This document shows, piece by piece, positions 4,621 to 62,811 of a DNA stretch of 64,000 nucleotides. A model generated the notes under the pieces. The model was not told the DNA's origin, did not search any database, and was given only the letters and a program-made list of their open reading frames with translations. The stretch's first letter is position 1, and each line of letters opens with the position of its first letter. Made by a program: the position numbers and the translations under genes. The DNA comes from Vicinamibacterales bacterium (GTDB lineage Bacteria > Acidobacteriota > Vicinamibacteria > Vicinamibacterales > UBA2999), in NCBI GenBank assembly GCA_038213735.1, contig JBBQSP010000021.1, positions 229 to 64,228 of the forward strand, in the 5' to 3' direction.

Positions 4621-5319
4621 TTAGACGTGGTTCACGGGGCCATCGCTGCGCGGCGCGTCCTTGAGCTGGCGCTCGATCGTCCGGCTCACGGCGTCCTTCG
4701 CGCCAAGTCCGACGGCGAGCGCGGCCGCAAACACCACGCCGCCGAAGAAGATGCCGAAGGCCAACAGCAGTACGTTCCGCCCGATGCCGAGGTGATCGAG
4801 GGCCATGGCCATGGTGATGATCAACACGAGCCACTTGGCCGCGAGGCTGAGCAGCCGCGCCGAGTGGATTTGCATGTTGACGGCGCCGATCAGGACCGAG
4901 CGCGCGAGTAGCCGCGCCGCCACCGCGCCGACGGCCAGGATCATCAGCGCGGCCAGCAGGTGCGGCACGTACTCGAACACCGAGATTGCCAGTCGCGACG
5001 GAATGGTGGCATTGAGCGCCGTCAGGCTGACCAGCAGTCCGAGCACCAGGATGGTCCAATAGAAGACGCGCGCCACGGTTTGTGACGGGCTGGCCGCCGC
5101 CGGCCATCCCACCAGTGACGCCACGCCCCAGTGTTCGACGCGGCGATCGAAGTCGAGGCCGCGCAGCGCGCGCACGATCAGCATGCGCGCGAGCACCGCC
5201 GTGATGATGGCGCCGACCATCAGCGTCAGCGATACCAGCAGGCCCGGCAGAAAATTCGCGATGTGGTCAGCGATCTGCGCTGCCGCCTGTCGCACGATTT
5301 GTTCCGCCTGTTCCCACAT
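4621..5319 (-). CDS. Multi-pass membrane protein, conserved TM-helix-repeat / mechanosensitive-channel-like
   Basis: 232 aa with several long hydrophobic segments and a clean ORF. The family assignment is from memory only. Confidence 0.6.
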   Translation of the reverse strand: MWEQAEQIVRQAAAQIADHIANFLPGLLVSLTLMVGAIITAVLARMLIVRALRGLDFDRRVEHWGVASLVGWPAAASPSQTVARVFYWTILVLGLLVSLTALNATIPSRLAISVFEYVPHLLAALMILAVGAVAARLLARSVLIGAVNMQIHSARLLSLAAKWLVLIITMAMALDHLGIGRNVLLLAFGIFFGGVVFAAALAVGLGAKDAVSRTIERQLKDAPRSDGPVNHV

Positions 5320-6589
5320 GACTGCTCCTCCTGGTCCCCTCTGCCCCTGGCGCTCCGTTTACTTGCGGAGGCGCTCCGGCCATCGCCACCGTGCGATCAG
5401 GTGGCGCTTTTCCACCTCGAACGCCCGGCACAACTGCTCGACGCGGTCTTCGATCTGCGTCTGGTCCGCGCCGCCCAGCTGCAGGATAAAGGACGCCAGC
5501 CACCCGCTGTACAGCGGCGTCAGCGAGCGCAACAAGTGATCGCGTGGCATCGCCCGCGAGCTGTAGCCGATCGCGAAATCGTAGATGATGCCGGCCCACA
5601 GCCGATCGTCAATACGGAATCGTTCGACCGGCACTTCGGTGAGCTTGCGCAGCTCGACGATCGTGCGCGGCGGCAGCACCCAGGTCCAAATGTCGCGCAG
5701 TTCCCGGTAGCCCAGCCGGTATGAGTCGATCAGTGTATCCACCGGCGGCCCGCTGGTGTCGGATTCCGGGCTGCCTTCGCCGCCGATCACGGGAATGGCC
5801 ACCGAGCCCCTGATCCGTTGCCAGATGTCGACGCGATGGTCGAGGTCCACGAACAGGGCGCCCGCCACTTGCGCCAGCGTGGTGCTCAGGTCGGCGCCGC
5901 TGGCGCGCGCCGGTCCGCGGCGGCCGAGCGTCGCCTCGCAGCTGCGAAACTCGCCGCACACGGCGGCTACTGCCAGCCACAGGTCAATGGCCGCCGGCGC
6001 GTGCTCGGCGTCCCAGAAATCCTGCTCCAGCAAATGCGTGACCAGGCGCCCGGAACAGCCGAACTCGCCCGCAGCGGGCTGGCGCAGGCGCGCGCCGTAG
6101 AGAGCGCGGAACATCGGGTAGACGAGCGCCCGGGTCATGGCGCCGTCACCGAGCGGGCGCGCGTAGTACGGCGACACGTAGTCGAACCCCTCCACCAGCA
6201 CGGGGCCGATCAGCTGCTCAATCCACTCGGGCTGCACGGTCTCGAGGCTCGCGTCCACGACCGCGCAGGCACCGGCGCCCATTCGCTCCGAGGCCTGCAG
6301 GATCGCCCGCACCGCCGCGGGGCGCGCTGGGTGGCCATGGTACGGAAGTTCGGCCAACGGCGAGCCACGTTCCACCACCACGTCGACCAGGGCCGCGGCG
6401 CCGATCACCTCCAGCGCCGCCTCGCGGGTGCCGTCGGTGGAGCCGGCATCGGCCAGGACGAAACGCACCGCGCGGCCGGGAAAGGCGCGCGAGACGCCGT
6501 CGCGTACAGCCCGCGCCACCGCGCCGACGGTGCGGGCGTCGTTGTCGCTCGTGAGCCCGATCACGAGGTCGGCGTGGGCCGGGACGGCC

Positions 6590-10782: not shown

Positions 10783-11825
10783 TGCCGACGGGAGCGGACA
10801 ACGACGTGTCGGGAGGGAACTCCTTGTCGGGAGGGAACCTCACGTCGGGAGGGCACTTCTCGTCGGGAGGGCACTTCGTGGCGGGAGCTCAGCCCTCGAC
10901 GGGATTGGTGCTGGTTCAGGCCGATCACGTGTCGAAGTGGTACGGGCAGGTGAGCGGCCTCAACGACGTCACCGTGTCGATTCCGCCGGGGATCACCGGC
11001 CTGCTCGGGCCGAACGGCGCCGGCAAGTCCACGTTCATGAAGTTGATGACGGGGCAGTTGAAGCCGAGCCAGGGCACCATCCGCGTGCTTGGCGAGCCGA
11101 TCTGGGGCAACCCCGACGTCTACGCGCGCATTGGGTTCTGTCCAGAGCAGGACGCGTTCTACGACCGCATGACCGGCTTTGAATGGGTCAACGCGCTCGT
11201 GCGCCTGAACGGCTACAGCGATGCGGAAGCCGCGGCCGCGGCCAAGGCCGCCCTCGACAAGGTGGACTTGCTCGACGCGGGCGCCAAGAAGATTGGCGCC
11301 TACAGCAAGGGCATGCGTCAGCGCGTCAAGCTCGCCCAGGCGCTGGTCCACGACCCCGAGCTGCTGATCCTCGACGAACCGCTCACCGGAATGGACCCGC
11401 TGATGCGGCGCAAGACCATCCGCCTGATCAAGGACTGGGCCCGTGCCGGCAAGCACATCATCGTCTCCAGCCACATCCTGCACGAGATCGAGTCGATGAC
11501 CTCGAACATCCTCTTGATCAACAACGGCCGCATTCTCGCCGAAGGCAACGTGCACCAGATCCGCGACCTGATCGACACGCACCCGCACACCGTGTTCGTG
11601 CGCGGCGCCGACCCGCGCGCGCTGGCCCGCAAGTTCATGCAGGAAGACGATGTGCTCAGCATGAAGTTCGAGCCGGGCGCGGTGATCGTGGAGACGTCAA
11701 AGCCCGATCGCTTCTATGCGCGGCTCACCGAGCTCGCCGCGTCGGGGGAGTGCGGCCGCATTGACGAAGTGCAGTCGCCCGACGACAACCTGCAGGCCGT
11801 CTTCAAGTACCTGGTGAAACAGTGA
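10782..11825 (+). CDS. ABC transporter ATP-binding protein whose N-terminal extension is encoded by an 18-nt tandem repeat
   Basis: Walker A GPNGAGKST, signature YSKGMRQR, Walker B LLILDEP. ATG 10782 overlaps the upstream TGA. Alternative starts TTG 10905 and GTG 10908 would exclude the repeat. Confidence 0.8.
   Translation: MPTGADNDVSGGNSLSGGNLTSGGHFSSGGHFVAGAQPSTGLVLVQADHVSKWYGQVSGLNDVTVSIPPGITGLLGPNGAGKSTFMKLMTGQLKPSQGTIRVLGEPIWGNPDVYARIGFCPEQDAFYDRMTGFEWVNALVRLNGYSDAEAAAAAKAALDKVDLLDAGAKKIGAYSKGMRQRVKLAQALVHDPELLILDEPLTGMDPLMRRKTIRLIKDWARAGKHIIVSSHILHEIESMTSNILLINNGRILAEGNVHQIRDLIDTHPHTVFVRGADPRALARKFMQEDDVLSMKFEPGAVIVETSKPDRFYARLTELAASGECGRIDEVQSPDDNLQAVFKYLVKQ
10808..10897 (+). repeat. 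18-nt tandem repeat array (5 units) inside the 5' part of the ABC ATPase ORF
   Basis: Unit boundaries are 10808, 10826, 10844, 10862 and 10880. The array is translated as SGGNSL SGGNLT SGGHFS SGGHFV. Confidence 0.9.
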
Positions 11826-16992: not shown

Positions 16993-17054
16993 AAGGCTTG
17001 CCGCGCCGAAGCTCGGTGGCGCAGCAGGAGCGAAGGCGGGTAAGATGCGCGGAC

Positions 17055-17471
17055 GTGCCTGACCACGTCTTCTTCTACGGAACGCTGATGTCGCCGTTCA
17101 ATCGGCCAGGGCGGCTCCGCATCACTCCCAAGCTCAACTACTCAGGGCGCGGCTCCATCGGGGCCGCGCTCTTCGACTTAGGGATCTATCCCGCGGCAGT
17201 TGCCACCGAAGACCAGGGCCGGGTGTGGGGCGAGGTTTACGAAATGCTCGACACCGGCCCGGTGCTGGCCGCACTCGACGAGATCGAGGGCTACCGGCCG
17301 AGCGAACCGGCGCGCAGCCTCTACGCCCGCGTCCTCGCCGACGTGACGCTCGACGATGGCCGCACCGAACAGGCCTGGGCGTACTTCTACAACGCTCCGC
17401 TCGGGCGCGCGCAGCGCATCTCCTCGGGCGATTACCTCGAACACTTGAATCACGCACCACGACAAACCTAA
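17055..17471 (+). CDS. Gamma-glutamylcyclotransferase (AIG2/GGACT-like)
   Basis: Motifs FFYGTLM ... GxLFDLGxYPA ... GEVYE are present. The ORF is open from 16998. The stop TAA lies in the loop of a palindromic repeat. Confidence 0.7.
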   Translation: MPDHVFFYGTLMSPFNRPGRLRITPKLNYSGRGSIGAALFDLGIYPAAVATEDQGRVWGEVYEMLDTGPVLAALDEIEGYRPSEPARSLYARVLADVTLDDGRTEQAWAYFYNAPLGRAQRISSGDYLEHLNHAPRQT

Positions 17472-17536
17472 AGGTTTGTCGCCACGACTACGAGTTATGA
17501 CAAACCTAAAGGTTTGTCGCCACGACTACGAGTTAT
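17460..17536. repeat. Two tandem 38-nt units, each with a (C)GACAAACC-TAAA-GGTTTGTC(G) hairpin
   Basis: The units begin at 17461 and 17499. Together they fill the whole gap between the convergent GGCT and PilZ genes and contain both stop codons. Confidence 0.9.
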
Positions 17537-17871
17537 ATTGCCAGTTCATCGACGAAGTGCGCGATCTCGACCGCGACGCGATCCGACAGTTCGATGAACT
17601 CGACCCCGGTACGGTAGGTGATAATGTCCTGGTCGACGTCGCTGATGCGCGAGTGCGCGACGCGGCCCTTGACGACGACCGAGCGGTCGCCGAGCGTGAG
17701 GCGGAAGTCGTGAAGGGAATCCAGCTGCAGGGGAAAGGCGGTTTCCACCTGCATGCCACCGTGGCTGATCTGGTGCACGGCGGTCGGCTGGAACACCATT
17801 ACCTCGCCGTGTAGCGCCCCCAGGAGTTCAATGCGCTTGGAATCGCGCTTGTGGTCTTCTTCCGGGGCCAT
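17533..17871 (-). CDS. PilZ-domain-like protein
   Basis: Contains RDSKR (RxxxR) and QISHGGM (a variant of D/NxSxxG) motifs. A TATAAT box lies 9 nt upstream of the ATG. Confidence 0.55.
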   Translation of the reverse strand: MAPEEDHKRDSKRIELLGALHGEVMVFQPTAVHQISHGGMQVETAFPLQLDSLHDFRLTLGDRSVVVKGRVAHSRISDVDQDIITYRTGVEFIELSDRVAVEIAHFVDELAI

Positions 17872-18185
17872 TGGCTCGAAATTATAGCGTAAGCCTCGCC
17901 GTTGACGTAGGTGAGGATCGGCAGCCGGCGCGTCGCCGGATCGAGCTGCAGCATCTGCAGCACCTGGCAAGCCTCGTCGTCGTCGGGCGCGAAACATAAC
18001 ACCACCAGGTCGGGACGCCGCCGGCGAATCGCGCGGTACGGGGTGTCGTCCTTGTCGAGGAAGTCGAGGCGGAAGCGCGTGGTGCCAAGCATCGGCTGAA
18101 TGCCGGCGAGCGCCTCCGGACCTGCGCCAACAATCAGGGCTCTCGGCATTGCGGTGCGGTCGGCCTGCGTCTGGACGGGTCTCAT
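17799..18185 (-). CDS. Degenerate CheY-like receiver (pseudo-receiver) protein
   Basis: Receiver-like beta/alpha pattern, but GAG replaces the acidic pair and DLVVLCF carries Cys at the phospho-acceptor position. The 3' end overlaps the PilZ gene by 73 nt. Confidence 0.45.
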   Translation of the reverse strand: MRPVQTQADRTAMPRALIVGAGPEALAGIQPMLGTTRFRLDFLDKDDTPYRAIRRRRPDLVVLCFAPDDDEACQVLQMLQLDPATRRLPILTYVNGEAYAIISSQWPRKKTTSAIPSALNSWGRYTAR

Positions 18186-33745: not shown

Positions 33746-33767
33746 GGACGAACCTTTAGGTTCGTCC
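33746..33767. repeat. Palindrome GGACGAACC-TTTA-GGTTCGTCC
   Basis: 9-bp stem with a TTTA loop, preceded by a GTCGGGA motif. It lies in a divergent intergenic region. Confidence 0.8.
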
Positions 33768-39296: not shown

Positions 39297-39311
39297 TTGC
39301 GTCGTCGAATT

Positions 39312-39346
39312 CGACAAACCGAAAGGTTTGTCGCCACGCACCGAAG

Positions 39347-39349
<3 letters not shown>
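39312..39349. repeat. Single copy of the 38-nt palindromic unit (CGACAAACC-GAAA-GGTTTGTCG-CCACGCACCGAAGTTA)
   Basis: Matches the units at 17460-17536. The radical-SAM stop codon (TTA on the plus strand, 39347-39349) is the last triplet of the unit. Confidence 0.85.
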
Positions 39350-41425
<2,076 letters not shown>

Positions 41426-41644
41426 GAGCACTCCTCACTGGACGATCGGGCTCTGTCGAGTTGGTGCAGGTCTGGATCACGGCCCGTAAGTGATTGACTG
41501 GCCGATATCTTACGGTGATTTCTGCCCAGCTTGCACAGGGAGTCCGGAGTTGGCCGAAAGGCAGGGTGAACTGGCACGGGCGCTGCGCGAACGGCCAATA
41601 TCCGATTAAAAGAGTCGGCATTAAAAGGAGATATTCTGCCCGGT

Positions 41645-42886
41645 ATGCGCCTGCCGCTTACCTCAGCCTTGGTCGCGTTGGCGTCGGTGCTCGCGCTTGC
41701 GGAACAACCGGGCCGGGTGTCGCCACAAGAGGCCATCGCCCTCACCAACGCTGCGGTGATTCATGTGAGAAGTGGCGTCATCGCGCGCGGCGCAACCGTG
41801 GTCCTTCGCGGCGGCCGGATCGAGAGCGTCGGTGCCGGGGCGGTCCCGGCCGGCGTCCGCGCCATCGACCTCAAGGGCCGCTACGTCGTGCCGGGCCTGA
41901 TCGATGCGCATGTACACATCGCGTCGCTCCCGCAGATGCGGGCCGCGCTCGACAGCGGCGTCACCACCGTGCGCAGCGCCGGCGTGGCGCACTTTGTTGA
42001 TGTCGGCCTGCGCGAGCTGGTGCGGAAGGGCTTTGCCGCCGGCCCCGACATGATTGCGACGGGCTATCACGTGCGCCCCGGCGTCGCCGCCGAGTTCTTT
42101 CTCGATTTTCCCGGTGAAGGTGGGTTGATGGCCGGCGCGCCGGCCGCCGACGCGATTCGCCGCATGGTGCGCGCCAACCTGTCGCGGGGCGTGGACTGGA
42201 TCAAGACCAACGCGACGGAGCGGGCCGGCACGCCGGACACCGATCCGCGGCGCCAGCTCTATAGCCAGGAAGAGTTGCGGATCCTCGTGGTCGAGGCCGC
42301 CGCGAAGAACATTCCGGTGATGGCGCACGCGCATGGCGCCGAAGGCGCCGACGCGGCGGTTCGCGCCGGCGTGCGCAGCATCGAGCACGGCACCTATCTC
42401 TCGGACGAGACGCTGCAGTTGATGGCGAAGCAGGGCACCTTCTTCGACCCCACGCTCGACATCGTCAACGACCTGGCCGAAGCGGGCGGCGACTACGACA
42501 ATGCCGGACTGAAGCGGCGCGGTGAGATGATGCAGCCCATTCTGCTCGCCGCGGTGCAGCGCGCGCACAAGTTCGGTGTCAAGATTGTGGCCGGTTCGGA
42601 CACCGGCTACGGACCCTCGAGCATCGCGCGGGTGTCACGCGAGATCGGCATACTGGTGACGGCCGGCCTGACACCGCTGCGGGCCCTACAGGCGGCAACC
42701 CTGACCAACGCCGAGCTGCTGCGACTCGAGAAGCAGGTGGGCGTGGTGGAGGCGGGCTTCGAAGCCGACCTGCTGGTCGTGGACGGCAACCCGCTCGATA
42801 ATGTTCGGACGCTGCTCGATCCGCTGCTCGTGATCAGCAACGGCCGGGTTGGCTTGGACCGTTTGAGTTTCAGCAAGGACAAGTAG
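41645..42886 (+). CDS. Secreted amidohydrolase-family metallohydrolase
   Basis: Has a signal peptide, the GLIDAHVHI metal-binding motif and later AHAHG and SDTG motifs. Confidence 0.8.
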   Translation: MRLPLTSALVALASVLALAEQPGRVSPQEAIALTNAAVIHVRSGVIARGATVVLRGGRIESVGAGAVPAGVRAIDLKGRYVVPGLIDAHVHIASLPQMRAALDSGVTTVRSAGVAHFVDVGLRELVRKGFAAGPDMIATGYHVRPGVAAEFFLDFPGEGGLMAGAPAADAIRRMVRANLSRGVDWIKTNATERAGTPDTDPRRQLYSQEELRILVVEAAAKNIPVMAHAHGAEGADAAVRAGVRSIEHGTYLSDETLQLMAKQGTFFDPTLDIVNDLAEAGGDYDNAGLKRRGEMMQPILLAAVQRAHKFGVKIVAGSDTGYGPSSIARVSREIGILVTAGLTPLRALQAATLTNAELLRLEKQVGVVEAGFEADLLVVDGNPLDNVRTLLDPLLVISNGRVGLDRLSFSKDK

Positions 42887-42990
42887 TGCCAGAAGGGCGG
42901 CACTTTAGTGCCGCCGGTGTAGTGCCAGCAGGGCGGCACTTCAGTGCTGCCGAGTAGTGCTAGAAGGGCGGCACTTTAGTGCCGCCGGAG
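42884..42990 (+). repeat. Three tandem 35-36-nt units, each with a GGCGGCAC-TT(T/C)A-GTGC(C/T)GCC hairpin
   Basis: The units are 42884-42919, 42920-42954 and 42955-42990. The first starts on the amidohydrolase TAG. The last ends in GGAGGAG just upstream of ATG 42999. Confidence 0.9.
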
Positions 42991-44645: not shown

Positions 44646-44735
44646 GACGGGAGGTGCCTTCCAGACGGGAGGGCACCTCTTGTCGGGAGGGCACTGCTTG
44701 TCGGGGAAGTTACCCTTGTCGGGACAAGAACACCG
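44646..44735 (+). repeat. 18-nt tandem repeat array (5 units, GWCGGGAGGGCACYKCTT-like)
   Basis: Unit boundaries are 44646, 44664, 44682, 44700 and 44718. The array lies directly downstream of the stop at 44633. Confidence 0.9.
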
Positions 44736-44990: not shown

Positions 44991-46193
44991 CTACGACGCG
45001 CCGTTCGTCACAAATTCGCGGAATCTTTCAAGAGCCGTCGTGACGGTCGCTTCCGTGGCTGCAAAGCATACGCGAATGTATCCTTCGCCATCACTTCCGA
45101 AGGCCACACCGGGCGCCAGGGCCACCCCCGTGGCCTGCAGCAGTGCCGCGGTGAAGGCGGTCGAGTCGGTCAAGGCCTCGATTCGTGGAAACGCGTAGAA
45201 CGCGCCCGCGGGCGCCGGCAGCGACACCCCAGGCGTTGCGGCCAGCGCGGTCACGACTTGCGTGCGCCGCTCGGTGTAGTGCCGGCGCAGCTCCGCGATG
45301 TACCGCTCACCATCGCGCAGTGCGACGATGCCGGCCTGCTGCACCATGGCCGATGGATTCGAGGTCATGAACTCCACGGCTCGATACATGGTCTTGATGG
45401 TGGCCTCGCTGGCCTGCGCCCAGCCGAGCCGCCAGCCGGTCATGTTGTAGGTCTTCGAGAAGCTGTTGACGACGATCAGGCGGTCGCGGTTGCCGGCGAC
45501 GCGCGCAAACGACGGCGCAACCTGTGGCGACAAACCTTCTACCTGTGGCGACAAACCTTTAGGTTTGTCGTGATAAACCAGCCGCTCATAAACTTCGTCC
45601 GCCAGAATAATCAGGTCGTGCTGCGCGGCCAGTTCGAGCAACGACCGCTGCTCTTCGGCGCTAATCACCCAGCCGGTGGGGTTCGACGGGCTGTTGATGA
45701 TGATCATCCGGGTGTTGCGGTCGATGGCGGCGCGGACGCGATCGAGGTCGAGCCGGAACCGGCCGCCGTCACGCGCCAGTGGCACCGGCCGGGGTTCACC
45801 GCCGGCCATGATCACGCCGTTCGAGAAGATCGCGTACGCGGGCGAGACAATCACCGCATTGTCGCCGCGGCTGACGAAGGCGCGTATAGCCGCATAGATC
45901 GCCATCGACGCGCCGACCGTGCTCATGATTTCGGTCGGGCGATACCCCACGCCGTGGAGTTGGTGAATCTTCTGCGCGATGGCTTCGCGCAGTTCCAGAT
46001 AGCCGGCGGTATGGGTGTAGAAGGTGTGACCGGCTTTCAACGCCGCGTCGGCCGCCGCGCAGATGAACGCCGGCGTCGGCAGGTCGGACTCGCCGTAGCA
46101 GAGCTTCAGCGACCCGGGCATCGCCTCTGCGGCAGTGGCGATCTGCACCATGGGTGACTCGGCAACGCCGGCGAACTCGCGGGTGTAGCGCAC
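44991..46193 (-). CDS. Class I/II PLP aminotransferase (aspartate/aromatic type) carrying an in-frame repeat insertion
   Basis: Motifs CYGESDLPTP, ADEVYERLVY, NSFSKTYNMTGWRLGW and a C-terminal RVCFA are present. The start is GTG 46193. Confidence 0.85.
   Translation of the reverse strand: MRYTREFAGVAESPMVQIATAAEAMPGSLKLCYGESDLPTPAFICAAADAALKAGHTFYTHTAGYLELREAIAQKIHQLHGVGYRPTEIMSTVGASMAIYAAIRAFVSRGDNAVIVSPAYAIFSNGVIMAGGEPRPVPLARDGGRFRLDLDRVRAAIDRNTRMIIINSPSNPTGWVISAEEQRSLLELAAQHDLIILADEVYERLVYHDKPKGLSPQVEGLSPQVAPSFARVAGNRDRLIVVNSFSKTYNMTGWRLGWAQASEATIKTMYRAVEFMTSNPSAMVQQAGIVALRDGERYIAELRRHYTERRTQVVTALAATPGVSLPAPAGAFYAFPRIEALTDSTAFTAALLQATGVALAPGVAFGSDGEGYIRVCFAATEATVTTALERFREFVTNGAS
45521..45572. 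repeat. Palindromic-unit copy inside the aminotransferase CDS, with a 21-nt internal duplication
   Basis: CCTGTGGCGACAAACCTT occurs twice (45521 and 45542), followed by the hairpin CGACAAACC-TTTA-GGTTTGTCG (45549-45570). It is translated as DKPKGLSPQVEGLSPQ. Confidence 0.85.
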
Positions 46194-46202
46194 CGCGGCA
46201 TT

Positions 46203-47815: not shown

Positions 47816-47877
47816 GCCGGGAGGGCACCTCTTGTCGGGAGGCCAACTCTTGTCGGGAGTCGGGAGTCGGTCGGGAT
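47816..47877 (+). repeat. 18-nt tandem repeat array (2 full units, then degenerate GTCGGGA 7-mers)
   Basis: GCCGGGAGGGCACCTCTT, GTCGGGAGGCCAACTCTT, then GTCGGGAGTCGGGAGTCGGTCGGGA. The array fills the divergent intergenic region. Confidence 0.85.
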
Positions 47878-60475: not shown

Positions 60476-61461
60476 GACTTGTTGGTCCGGCTAAAGCCGG
60501 ACGCCACATTACCTGTAGCATCCGGCTTTAGCCGGCTAGACCAGGATCGCAGCAATCCCGCGAGGCCGGTCGGCATGAAGAGGATCAGCAACACCAGGCC
60601 CAGGCCGAAGATCACCATCTGGTACTCCTGGAGCACCTGGAGGACCTGCGACAGGCCGTAGACGATGAACGTACCGGCGACCGGACCCGAGAGCGACCCC
60701 ATGCCGCCGACCATCACGTAGAGCAACGAGTTGAACGTGACCTCGACGTTCGACGACTCGGGCCCGAGAAAGCCGATGAAGCCCGCATACAGCCCGCCCG
60801 CCAGCCCGGCGAGCGCGGCCGACACCGTGAAAGCCAGCCGCTTGGCGGCCATCACGTCGAGCCCGACCGCCGCGGCCAGCGGCTCGCTTTCGCGAACGGC
60901 CATCAGCGTGCGCCCAACCGGCGAGCGCAGCAGTCGCGCCGTGGCGACCAGCGTCAGCGCGAGGAAGGCCAGCGCCAGGTACGAACGCGCGATGCTGGAA
61001 TCGAAGTGAATCGGACCAATCGGCCCCGGTCCTGGAATGCCGATCACGCCAACGTGGCCGTGGGTCAGCGATTCCCATTTCTGGATCACGATGTGGATGA
61101 TCAGGCCGACGGCGAGCGTGAAGATCGAGAAGTAGTGCCCCTTGCTGCGCAGGCAGATCGATCCAATCGCGTGTCCACACGCGGCCGTGAGGACGATGCC
61201 GGCCGGCAGGCCGAGCCAGAACGCCACGCCGGCCTTGGTGGCGAGCAACGCGACCGTGTATGCGCCAATGCCGAAGAACCCGGCGTGCGCCAACGACAGC
61301 TGGCCGGCGAAGCCGACGATGACGTTGAGGCCGCAGGCCAGGATGGCGAAGACGTAACCCTGCGTCAGGATCTGCAGGTAGTACTCATTCGGCACGATCA
61401 GCGGCAGCCCGGCGCCCGCGGCCAGCGCGAAGCCCGGCGCGAACCGCTTCAGTGACGACAC
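60472..61461 (-). CDS. livM: Branched-chain-type ABC permease (LivM type) with a repeat-encoded C-terminal tail
   Basis: Multi-pass permease. The last ~20 codons ([21 protein letters not shown]) are encoded by the paired CCGGC hairpin element. Confidence 0.85.
   Translation of the reverse strand: MSSLKRFAPGFALAAGAGLPLIVPNEYYLQILTQGYVFAILACGLNVIVGFAGQLSLAHAGFFGIGAYTVALLATKAGVAFWLGLPAGIVLTAACGHAIGSICLRSKGHYFSIFTLAVGLIIHIVIQKWESLTHGHVGVIGIPGPGPIGPIHFDSSIARSYLALAFLALTLVATARLLRSPVGRTLMAVRESEPLAAAVGLDVMAAKRLAFTVSAALAGLAGGLYAGFIGFLGPESSNVEVTFNSLLYVMVGGMGSLSGPVAGTFIVYGLSQVLQVLQEYQMVIFGLGLVLLILFMPTGLAGLLRSWSSRLKPDATGNVASGFSRTNKS
60485..60537. repeat. Paired hairpins GTCCGGC-TAAA-GCCGGAC and CCGGC-TTTA-GCCGG separated by 19 nt
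   Basis: The hairpins are at 60485-60502 and 60522-60535. Both lie inside the livM 3' coding region. Confidence 0.85.
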
Positions 61462-62334: not shown

Positions 62335-62811
62335 TCAGTGGTAGTAGCGGACCAGCCACTGAGCGGCGCAGCACGGCTTGGTGCCGCCGTCTCGTTCGAC
62401 CAATACCGACCAAGTCGCCTGCTCGCCCCCTGCGACGGGATCGACGCGCGCCAGCGTGCAGCGGCTGCGCACCCGGGAGCCGGCCGGCAGGGCCGACGGG
62501 AAGCGCACCTTGTTCAATCCGTAGTTGATGCCCATCCTGGTGCCGTCGATCGCGCCAACCGCATCGCGCAACAGGCGGCTGACCAGCGCGAGCGTGAGAA
62601 AACCATGGGCGATGGTGCCGCCATATGGAGACTCCCGCGCCGCCCGTTCGGCATCCAGGTGGATCCACTGGCGATCGCCGGTGACGTCGGCGAACTGTGT
62701 AATGGCCTCCTGGGTCACGACGTGCCAGGGTGACACCATCTCTTTGCCGACGAGCTCTGCCAAACTCAATGTCGTGTCCGGCTTCAGCCGGACCGGCGGC
62801 GTGTCGCTCAC
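62335..62811 (-). CDS. MaoC-like (R)-specific enoyl-CoA hydratase/dehydratase
   Basis: Has a hot-dog fold pattern (FADVTGDRQWIHLD, IAHGFL). GTG 62811 overlaps the ACAD stop (GTGA). A TTG about 40 nt downstream of GTG 62811 would exclude the hairpin. Confidence 0.8.
   Translation of the reverse strand: MSDTPPVRLKPDTTLSLAELVGKEMVSPWHVVTQEAITQFADVTGDRQWIHLDAERAARESPYGGTIAHGFLTLALVSRLLRDAVGAIDGTRMGINYGLNKVRFPSALPAGSRVRSRCTLARVDPVAGGEQATWSVLVERDGGTKPCCAAQWLVRYYH
62776..62793. repeat. Palindrome GTCCGGC-TTCA-GCCGGAC
   Basis: Same stem as 60485-60502. It encodes RLKPD in the MaoC N-terminal region. Confidence 0.8.

Follow-up and report, generated by a model that had tools for sequence, protein, structure and literature searches.

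A probable GTGG-headed REP family in Vicinamibacterales-type Acidobacteriota

The hairpins that recur in this 64,000-nt stretch of Vicinamibacterales DNA (hereafter the window) most likely belong to a REP family of the GTAG-tagged superfamily, whose 26-nt unit is frequent among soil Acidobacteriota of the Vicinamibacterales type. The element is dispersed, is present at some orthologous sites and absent from others, and lies near gene ends where these are detectable. A first-pass annotation of the window had called it REP-like, a designation supported by its unpaired head, its stem, compensated changes within that stem and site polymorphism among relatives. The overlap of the element with stop codons is a by-product of its A/T-rich loop, a side effect already known for REPs.

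The repeat unit in the window and in related genomes

The starting point was a 38-nt palindromic unit, GACAAACCTAAAGGTTTGTCGCCACGACTACGAGTTAT, reported to occur twice in tandem in the gap between two convergent genes and to recur elsewhere in the window. All coordinates and sequence facts given for the tandem, the gap, the further copies and a stem variant are correct. The two tandem copies are exact (TRF score 152, 100% match; no such tandem is expected in 100 shuffles), and each consists of a hairpin, (C)GACAAACC-TAAA-GGTTTGTC(G), followed by CCAC. The 61 nt between the stops of the two genes, a GGACT-family ORF (16998-17471, Pfam PF06094, also termed GGCT) and a PilZ ORF on the minus strand (stop TTA at 17533-17535), are entirely repeat. 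In this window of ~66% G+C, the pattern GACRAACC-N4-GGTTYGTC has five matches, four copies and one variant, against 0.12 expected. The features are collected in Table 1.

Table 1. Palindromic repeats in the window
Feature	Coordinates	Strand	Description
REP copy 1	17460-17485	-	plus strand reads CGACAAACC-TAAA-GGTTTGTCG-CCAC; head GTGG on the minus strand
REP copy 2	17498-17523	-	first stem base T, not C, giving an 8-bp stem; from the 38-nt tandem duplication
38-nt x 2 tandem duplication	17461-17536		copies at 17461-17498 and 17499-17536; contains a REP lacking its first base, with 12 nt of native spacer, PilZ stop and partial last PilZ codon
Stem variant	33746-33767	+	GGACGAACC-TTTA-GGTTCGTCC; compensated A>G/T>C change, degenerate head GTCG
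REP copy 3 (site C)	39312-39337	-	plus-strand loop GAAA, head CCAC 39334-39337; hairpin 39312-39333; 9 nt from the radical-SAM stop 39347-39349
Second REP-like family, 36-nt x 3 array	42882-42990	+	GTAG-TGCCAGAAG-GGCGGCAC-TTTA-GTGCCGCC
Half-REP	45524-45544	+	GTGGCGACAAACC with an 8-nt spacer (period 21); head-side neighbour of copy 4
REP copy 4	45545-45570	+	head-first, GTGG 45545-45548; hairpin 45549-45570; in frame within the minus-strand class I/II aminotransferase gene 44991-46202 (PF00155)
Third stem family, loop and head as in the main family	60485-60535		GTCCGGC-TAAA-GCCGGAC-G-CCAC 60485-60507; inverted partner GTAG (60515-60518)...CCGGC-TTTA-GCCGG (60522-60535)

When one genome per species was scanned for CGACAAACC-N4-GGTTTGTCG, at least 119 matches turned up in at least 108 loci. 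As the copies were retrieved by this exact 18-base pattern, the stem is fixed by the pattern, and core conservation and part of the statistics carry an ascertainment bias. With that bias, a position table of 89 oriented copies gives a near-invariant core of 26 nt, GTGG(/GTAG)-CGACAAACC-TTYA-GGTTTGTCG, which comprises an unpaired head, a perfect 9-bp stem and a 4-nt loop, TT(T/C)A. Among copies selected for a GTGG or GTAG head, 93% have GTGG and 7% GTAG. Apart from a weak A/T-T-C after the tail, the flanks of the 89 copies hold no information. The 12-nt tail beyond GCCAC is not conserved in the family, so the 38-nt sequence first taken for the family unit is the 26-mer plus 12 nt of local DNA; the family logo and REP-free relatives rule the tail out as part of the element.

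The palindrome falls within the 6-9 bp stem range of REPs and bears an unpaired GTAG-type tetranucleotide on one end only. The head is found on one side only in 88 of the 119 matches listed (GTGG in 83, GTAG in 5); the remaining matches listed are mostly unrelated symmetric palindromes from Achromobacter and other genera. At least 87 head-tagged copies occur in at least 17 assemblies, mostly Acidobacteriota/Vicinamibacterales MAGs and often many per MAG, with at least 16 and at least 15 copies in two of them; REPs usually number more than 100 per genome. Head-tagged copies with the same stem were also seen in MAGs of other phyla, namely L048, L054 (Planctomycetaceae), L069, L092 (Ardenticatenaceae) and L008 (Caulobacteraceae), those from Ardenticatenaceae having a GTAG head and a TCCT loop; mis-binning, transfer or convergence could account for them.

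Among 14 stem variants (GAA/TTC, GGA/TCC, AGA/TCT, CAA/TTG and ACA/TGT), 9 show full compensation, against 1/64 expected by chance, and these compensated changes indicate that the hairpin structure is selected. The window variant at 33746-33767 belongs to one compensated subtype. It lies in a divergent spacer just upstream of a hydrolase gene start, and its stem recurs with a CCAC head in locus L077. Further stems share the head and the TTYA loop, GTCCGGC in the window (60485) and GCGGGTC and GCACCCC in the loci, which fits several REP families per genome. The pair at 60485-60535, with its partner 8 nt away, is a REPIN-like doublet; the GTCCGGC stem was seen once more at 62776-62793, with a TTCA loop. 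The second-family array at 42882-42990 is missing from the corresponding spacer in L028 and L023, and its first GTAG provides the TAG stop (42884-42886) of gene 41570-42886. Neither Rfam at gathering thresholds nor a tRNA scan gave any match in the whole window.

Within the main stem family of the window no REPIN doublet was found, the copies at 17461-17536 being arranged head-to-tail and the others being singletons. More widely, an inverted partner or half lies within 120 nt in 23 of 90 copies, and most copies are singletons or members of head-to-tail arrays. Few 13-mers GTGGCGACAAACC are solitary: 5 were counted, beside 105 full hairpins and 36 halves that adjoin a hairpin, so that the hairpin, not the half-site, is the unit. 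These adjoining halves are polar. On the head side, 40 of the 90 copies are accompanied by direct repeats of 'head + 5' arm + ~5 nt', one to three in number, with a modal period of 18 nt followed by 15, 21 and 24 nt, and tail-side direct repeats accompany only 4 of the 90, all of them whole-unit tandems. This head-side polarity has no description in the REP survey of 2013 (PMC3733652), from which the words 'half', 'truncated' and 'incomplete' are absent.

A separate set of direct arrays, termed family X, was observed in the window at 10808-10874, 44664-44694 and 47816-47846, all on the plus strand. Each repeats GTCGGGAGGGCAC plus 5 nt with an 18-nt period, a 13+5 architecture as in the half-REP arrays, and two of the arrays directly follow plus-strand gene stops (10782 and 44633). 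Family X was found in none of the related loci, and a full hairpin partner was not seen.

Gene ends and gene interiors

The genome of the window is not among the scanned loci; three loci are syntenic with it at ~78-88% identity, and more relatives were reached through GGCT orthologues. Where the window has its 2 x 38 array between the GGACT-family and PilZ genes, L122 and L123 carry one REP with the GGCT stop, TGA, in its loop, and L033 has a native TAG stop followed by a REP and one half-REP. The spacer has no REP in L127, the closest relative (91% protein identity), or in L126, where it is 22 nt long with a small A/T-rich hairpin. L124 and L125 have a palindrome of a different family there, GGGGTCAGACCCC. 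This small palindrome is itself dispersed, at 1900-2010 in L124/L125, 3685-3727 in L060 and 7084 in L022. At site C, the corresponding spacer of L023 has no REP, the flanks being too diverged for exact boundaries.

The two convergent genes relate to the repeat in different ways. For the GGACT-family gene, the ORF and the sequence confirm the earlier report that its stop, TAA at 17469-17471, forms part of the TAAA loop of the first hairpin. Among 120 GGCT orthologues the C-terminus mostly reads ..GDYLEHLN[AGV][KR]-stop, with native ends NGK-stop and NAR-stop. A minority end in ..NGTPRQT-stop, like the ..NHAPRQT-stop of the window; these enter the REP arm (CGA CAA ACC) and stop at the loop TAA or TGA. 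In L033 the frame beyond the native TAG continues as GAT CGA CAA ACC TAA and thus reaches the loop, so that loss of the native stop would give a tail of this kind. PilZ ends FVDELAK-stop in the REP-free L126 and L127 and FVDELAI-stop in the window. Since the REP-free relatives end PilZ at the same codon, its stop is ancestral and was co-duplicated with the hairpin. The proposal that one GTTA position of the element supplies the stops of different genes is thus not supported, both because the PilZ stop is in place where there is no REP and because the tail that would hold GTTA is not conserved.

Most likely, the spacer of these two convergent genes first held a single REP. The GGACT-family gene now terminates in the REP loop, at ..NHAPRQT-stop, and PilZ has retained its own stop; a later 38-nt tandem duplication probably took in, besides the REP, 12 nt of spacer, the PilZ stop and the partial last PilZ codon. 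Within the element, stop triplets occur in the loop alone (TAA or TGA read tail-first, TAG read head-first), and a frame that enters the element in one of three phases therefore ends there. Such loop stops would arise when a gene receives the element in its final codons, or when an upstream native stop is lost.

Other copies are read through. An open frame passes through 26 candidate copies, a list curated separately from that of the 25 copies scored as intragenic below. Coding statistics are sound for 22 of these, every one reading (G)DKPxGLS, and doubtful for the remaining four (L028, L066, L070 and L082). The intragenic frame is (G)DKP[SL]GLS or DKP[KEQ]GLSP, even though each orientation offers a second open frame. 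Intragenic copies would survive in one frame only, that encoding a harmless hydrophilic peptide, DKPxGLS(P). The fourth window copy, which had been placed inside a coding sequence, does lie in frame in the aminotransferase gene: together with its half-REP it encodes DKPKGLSPQVEGLSPQV, corresponding to a 14-residue gap after the DEVYE motif in the best solved homologue, 1DJU. The aminotransferase genes of L023 and L028 have the element at the same place, with differing numbers of 15-nt half-units.

In L093 (3921-7911), an adjacent UvrD/AddA-like helicase and AddB-like nuclease, so assigned from their sequences, were both seen to contain in-frame REP and half-REP inserts, DKPKGLSPHEGLSPH.. and DKPKGLSPPVGLSPPVGLSPPKGLSPP, of the form DKPKGLSP(xxGLSP)n. 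These inserts are reminiscent of published REPs, whose intragenic copies are enriched in repair genes.

Mobility and competing readings

The first-pass annotation suggested that the element is tied to stop codons, being either inserted at gene ends or selected because a fixed position in it supplies the stop. We regard this as very improbable. A tabulation of distances to the nearest stop codon, offered there as a check, speaks for it in part of the copies: in 90 copies classified by a crude GC3-based coding test with crude gene calls, the flanking stop lies inside the loop in 9 and the nearest stop within 10 nt in 15. Both window genes that meet the REP head-first also have TAA exactly 9 nt before GTGG, within a shared TAACT (n = 2), and the GGACT-family/PilZ spacer is occupied in several lineages. 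The same tabulation tells against targeting, with 25 of the 90 copies mid-gene, 29 with no gene end detected nearby and head-side stops scattered from -7 to -44. The 89 oriented copies show no conserved target motif, no TAA enrichment at -12 and no target-site duplication, and the PilZ stop is ancestral, as the REP-free L126 and L127 attest. The TAA 9 nt before GTGG is not a family property and may be a coincidence. A further 12 copies lie 11-50 nt from the nearest stop. In all, 65 of 90 are extragenic and, by these crude gene calls, the family is mainly intergenic and near 3' ends, as REPs are; the ~28% that are intragenic seem a high fraction for a REP.

The hairpins might instead be read as non-mobile terminators or mRNA 3' stabilisers, locally selected, that arose or are maintained in place, and 36 of 90 copies do have a detected gene end in the loop or no more than 50 nt away. 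The hairpins are stable: RNA folding of the 121-nt region that contains them gives -35 and -41.5 kcal/mol (z = -4.4 and -3.6), with stability on both strands. The array is moreover the sole structure between the convergent genes in the window, where the REP-free L126 has its A/T-rich hairpin instead. This reading is nonetheless very improbable, because identical 22-nt stems with an asymmetric head at more than 80 unrelated loci cannot arise independently and because the sites are polymorphic between relatives. Many copies are in frame in genes or, like that at 33746, upstream of starts. No intrinsic terminator was found either; a terminator and promoter scan of 17000-18000 was empty, and the hairpins are followed by GCCACGAC, with no T-run. 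Least probable of all is that the element is a miniature inverted-repeat element (MITE) mobilised by a DDE transposase, or else a sequence for protein binding or of the DNA-uptake type in which the 13-mer GTGGCGACAAACC is the functional unit. Direct 13-mer arrays are common, but the rarity of solitary 13-mers beside full hairpins and adjoining halves speaks against a 13-mer unit. At site C, the window copy has a 10-nt direct repeat, TGCGTCGTCG, on both sides; across 89 copies, however, direct repeats flank the 26-mer no more often than the shuffled expectation, and 26 nt is far below the size of known MITEs. This speaks against a DDE-type MITE, with its terminal inverted repeats and target-site duplication, and the lack of target-site duplication fits a Y1/HUH-type or other duplication-free mechanism.

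The two copies of TGCGTCGTCG at site C (39298-39307 and 39351-39360) enclose the REP with an additional 4 and 13 nt, and the right one lies within the last codons of the radical-SAM gene. The pair resembles a target-site duplication, as a single case without family-wide support.

By analogy with the REPs of E. coli and Pseudomonas, the REP family favoured here would spread as a single-stranded hairpin handled in trans by a RAYT-type Y1/HUH transposase. Where it is transcribed at mRNA 3' ends, its hairpin would, as with other REPs, act if at all as protection or terminator. No Y1 transposase is encoded in the window. Searches of ~870 kb of REP-centred loci and the window, by tblastn with E. coli RayT and the L105 protein and with an HMM from 120 homologues, found only the gene in L105. 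This RAYT-like Y1 gene (4824-5366) comes from a MAG in which at least 15 copies of the REP were counted; its product scores 60 bits against Pfam Y1_Tnp and 60.7 bits against its best NCBIfam model, REP_Tyr_transpos (REP-associated tyrosine transposase), the cutoff of which is 80 bits. A RAYT-like Y1 transposase is present in two REP-bearing MAGs.

In L105 (4713-5427), as in L117, L119 and L120, terminal inverted repeats of ~35 nt with the palindrome GGTGTC-W-GACACC lie on either side of this gene. It lies between or next to ABA4-like and DinB genes in the four Vicinamibacterales-type loci compared, among them one from a second REP-bearing MAG, and its homologues (L117-L121), likewise TIR-flanked, occur on very few contigs per cluster; it resembles a domesticated RAYT or 'TIRYT'. 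The nearest REP copy in L105 and L110 is ~750 nt downstream, inside another gene, and does not flank the RAYT. The RAYT loci L111-L121 contain no REP 13-mer (up to 2 mismatches allowed). Of the seven loci found by scanning metagenomes with the L105 protein, none except the identical contig has the REP, and three homologues with flanks are TIR-flanked without REP. Across the loci and the window, no RAYT flanked by REPs of its own family was found. The search for a RAYT or IS200-type TnpA that the first-pass annotation proposed yields, in these loci, the Y1 gene of L105, in a setting of unrelated terminal inverted repeats. Two candidates were set aside. The terminal palindrome GGTGTC-W-GACACC, considered as a relative of the REP, is confined to the RAYT ends and absent from the window; and two REP copies 430 bp apart in L054 (Planctomycetaceae MAG), considered as a RAYT cassette, enclose non-coding repeats.

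Relation to described repeats and significance

The closest described elements are the GTAG-tagged REPs (Di Nocera, De Gregorio & Rocco 2013, PMC3733652), with the REP/BIME elements of E. coli and Pseudomonas and the SMAG elements of Stenotrophomonas. They share with the present family a palindrome of 20-40 nt with an unpaired end tetranucleotide, many dispersed copies with several stem families per genome, and a location near the 3' ends of convergent and unidirectional genes, with stop supply, in-frame copies and tandem reiteration. In published GTAG REPs the stem measures 6-9 bp, and GTAG-20 of Opitutus terrae mostly bears the head GTGG; these REPs lie less than 20 bp from 3' ends, their termini supply TAG stops, they occur in frame within genes, notably repair genes, and they are reiterated in tandem with flanking DNA (PMC3733652). 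The present family differs in its host phylum, in being ~28% intragenic, in its one-sided arrays of 18-nt half-REPs and in that no REP-flanked RAYT was found. Stops in its main family come from the loop rather than from the GTAG head, although the second family of the window (42884-42886) uses the head.

As in REPIN-RAYT systems (Bertels & Rainey 2011, PMC3116915; Nunvar 2010, PMC2817692), there is a population of short hairpins, a RAYT-like Y1 gene in two genomes and some inverted doublets. Unlike in those systems, copies are mostly singletons or head-to-tail arrays, and the RAYT-like gene sits in unrelated 35-nt terminal inverted repeats. Rickettsia palindromic elements (RPE, cited in PMC3733652) are likewise palindromes tolerated in frame and translated as extra peptide segments. 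Their host is unrelated. RPEs are also longer (~100-150 bp), and their sequence is unrelated to that of the REP described here.

GTAG repeats have been reported in Proteobacteria, Cyanobacteria, Chloroflexi and the PVC group, not in Acidobacteria, for which the 2013 survey of GTAG/CGTC REPs lists only TIR-flanked Y1 transposases, 'TIRYT' (PMC3733652). Later tools give counts only, for three other Acidobacteriota, and literature searches for the repeat sequence itself and for palindromes in Vicinamibacteria returned nothing relevant. The family is apparently undescribed in the searched literature; stop supply, intragenic copies and tandem reiteration are already known for REPs. Its less ordinary points are the polar half-REP arrays, the high in-frame fraction and the absence of a REP-flanked RAYT among those found. 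It is a doubtful proposition, and on balance an improbable one, that these points jointly define a REP lineage that spreads without a REP-flanked RAYT (by a TIR-flanked single-copy Y1 in trans or another mechanism), that grows in a polar manner by 18-nt 'head plus one arm' units on its head side only, and that is unusually compatible with coding, about a quarter of its copies serving as translated DKPxGLSP(xx)n linkers in genes, including DNA-repair genes, and others as back-up stops at gene ends.

No new kind of system is revealed by these results. They add a GTGG-head REP family from a phylum without a REP family in the searched literature, and a repeat of this kind can break assemblies. For annotation, the family accounts for C-termini of Vicinamibacterales proteins that are oddly long or vary, and for brief inserts of low complexity (DKPKGLSP...) in such proteins.
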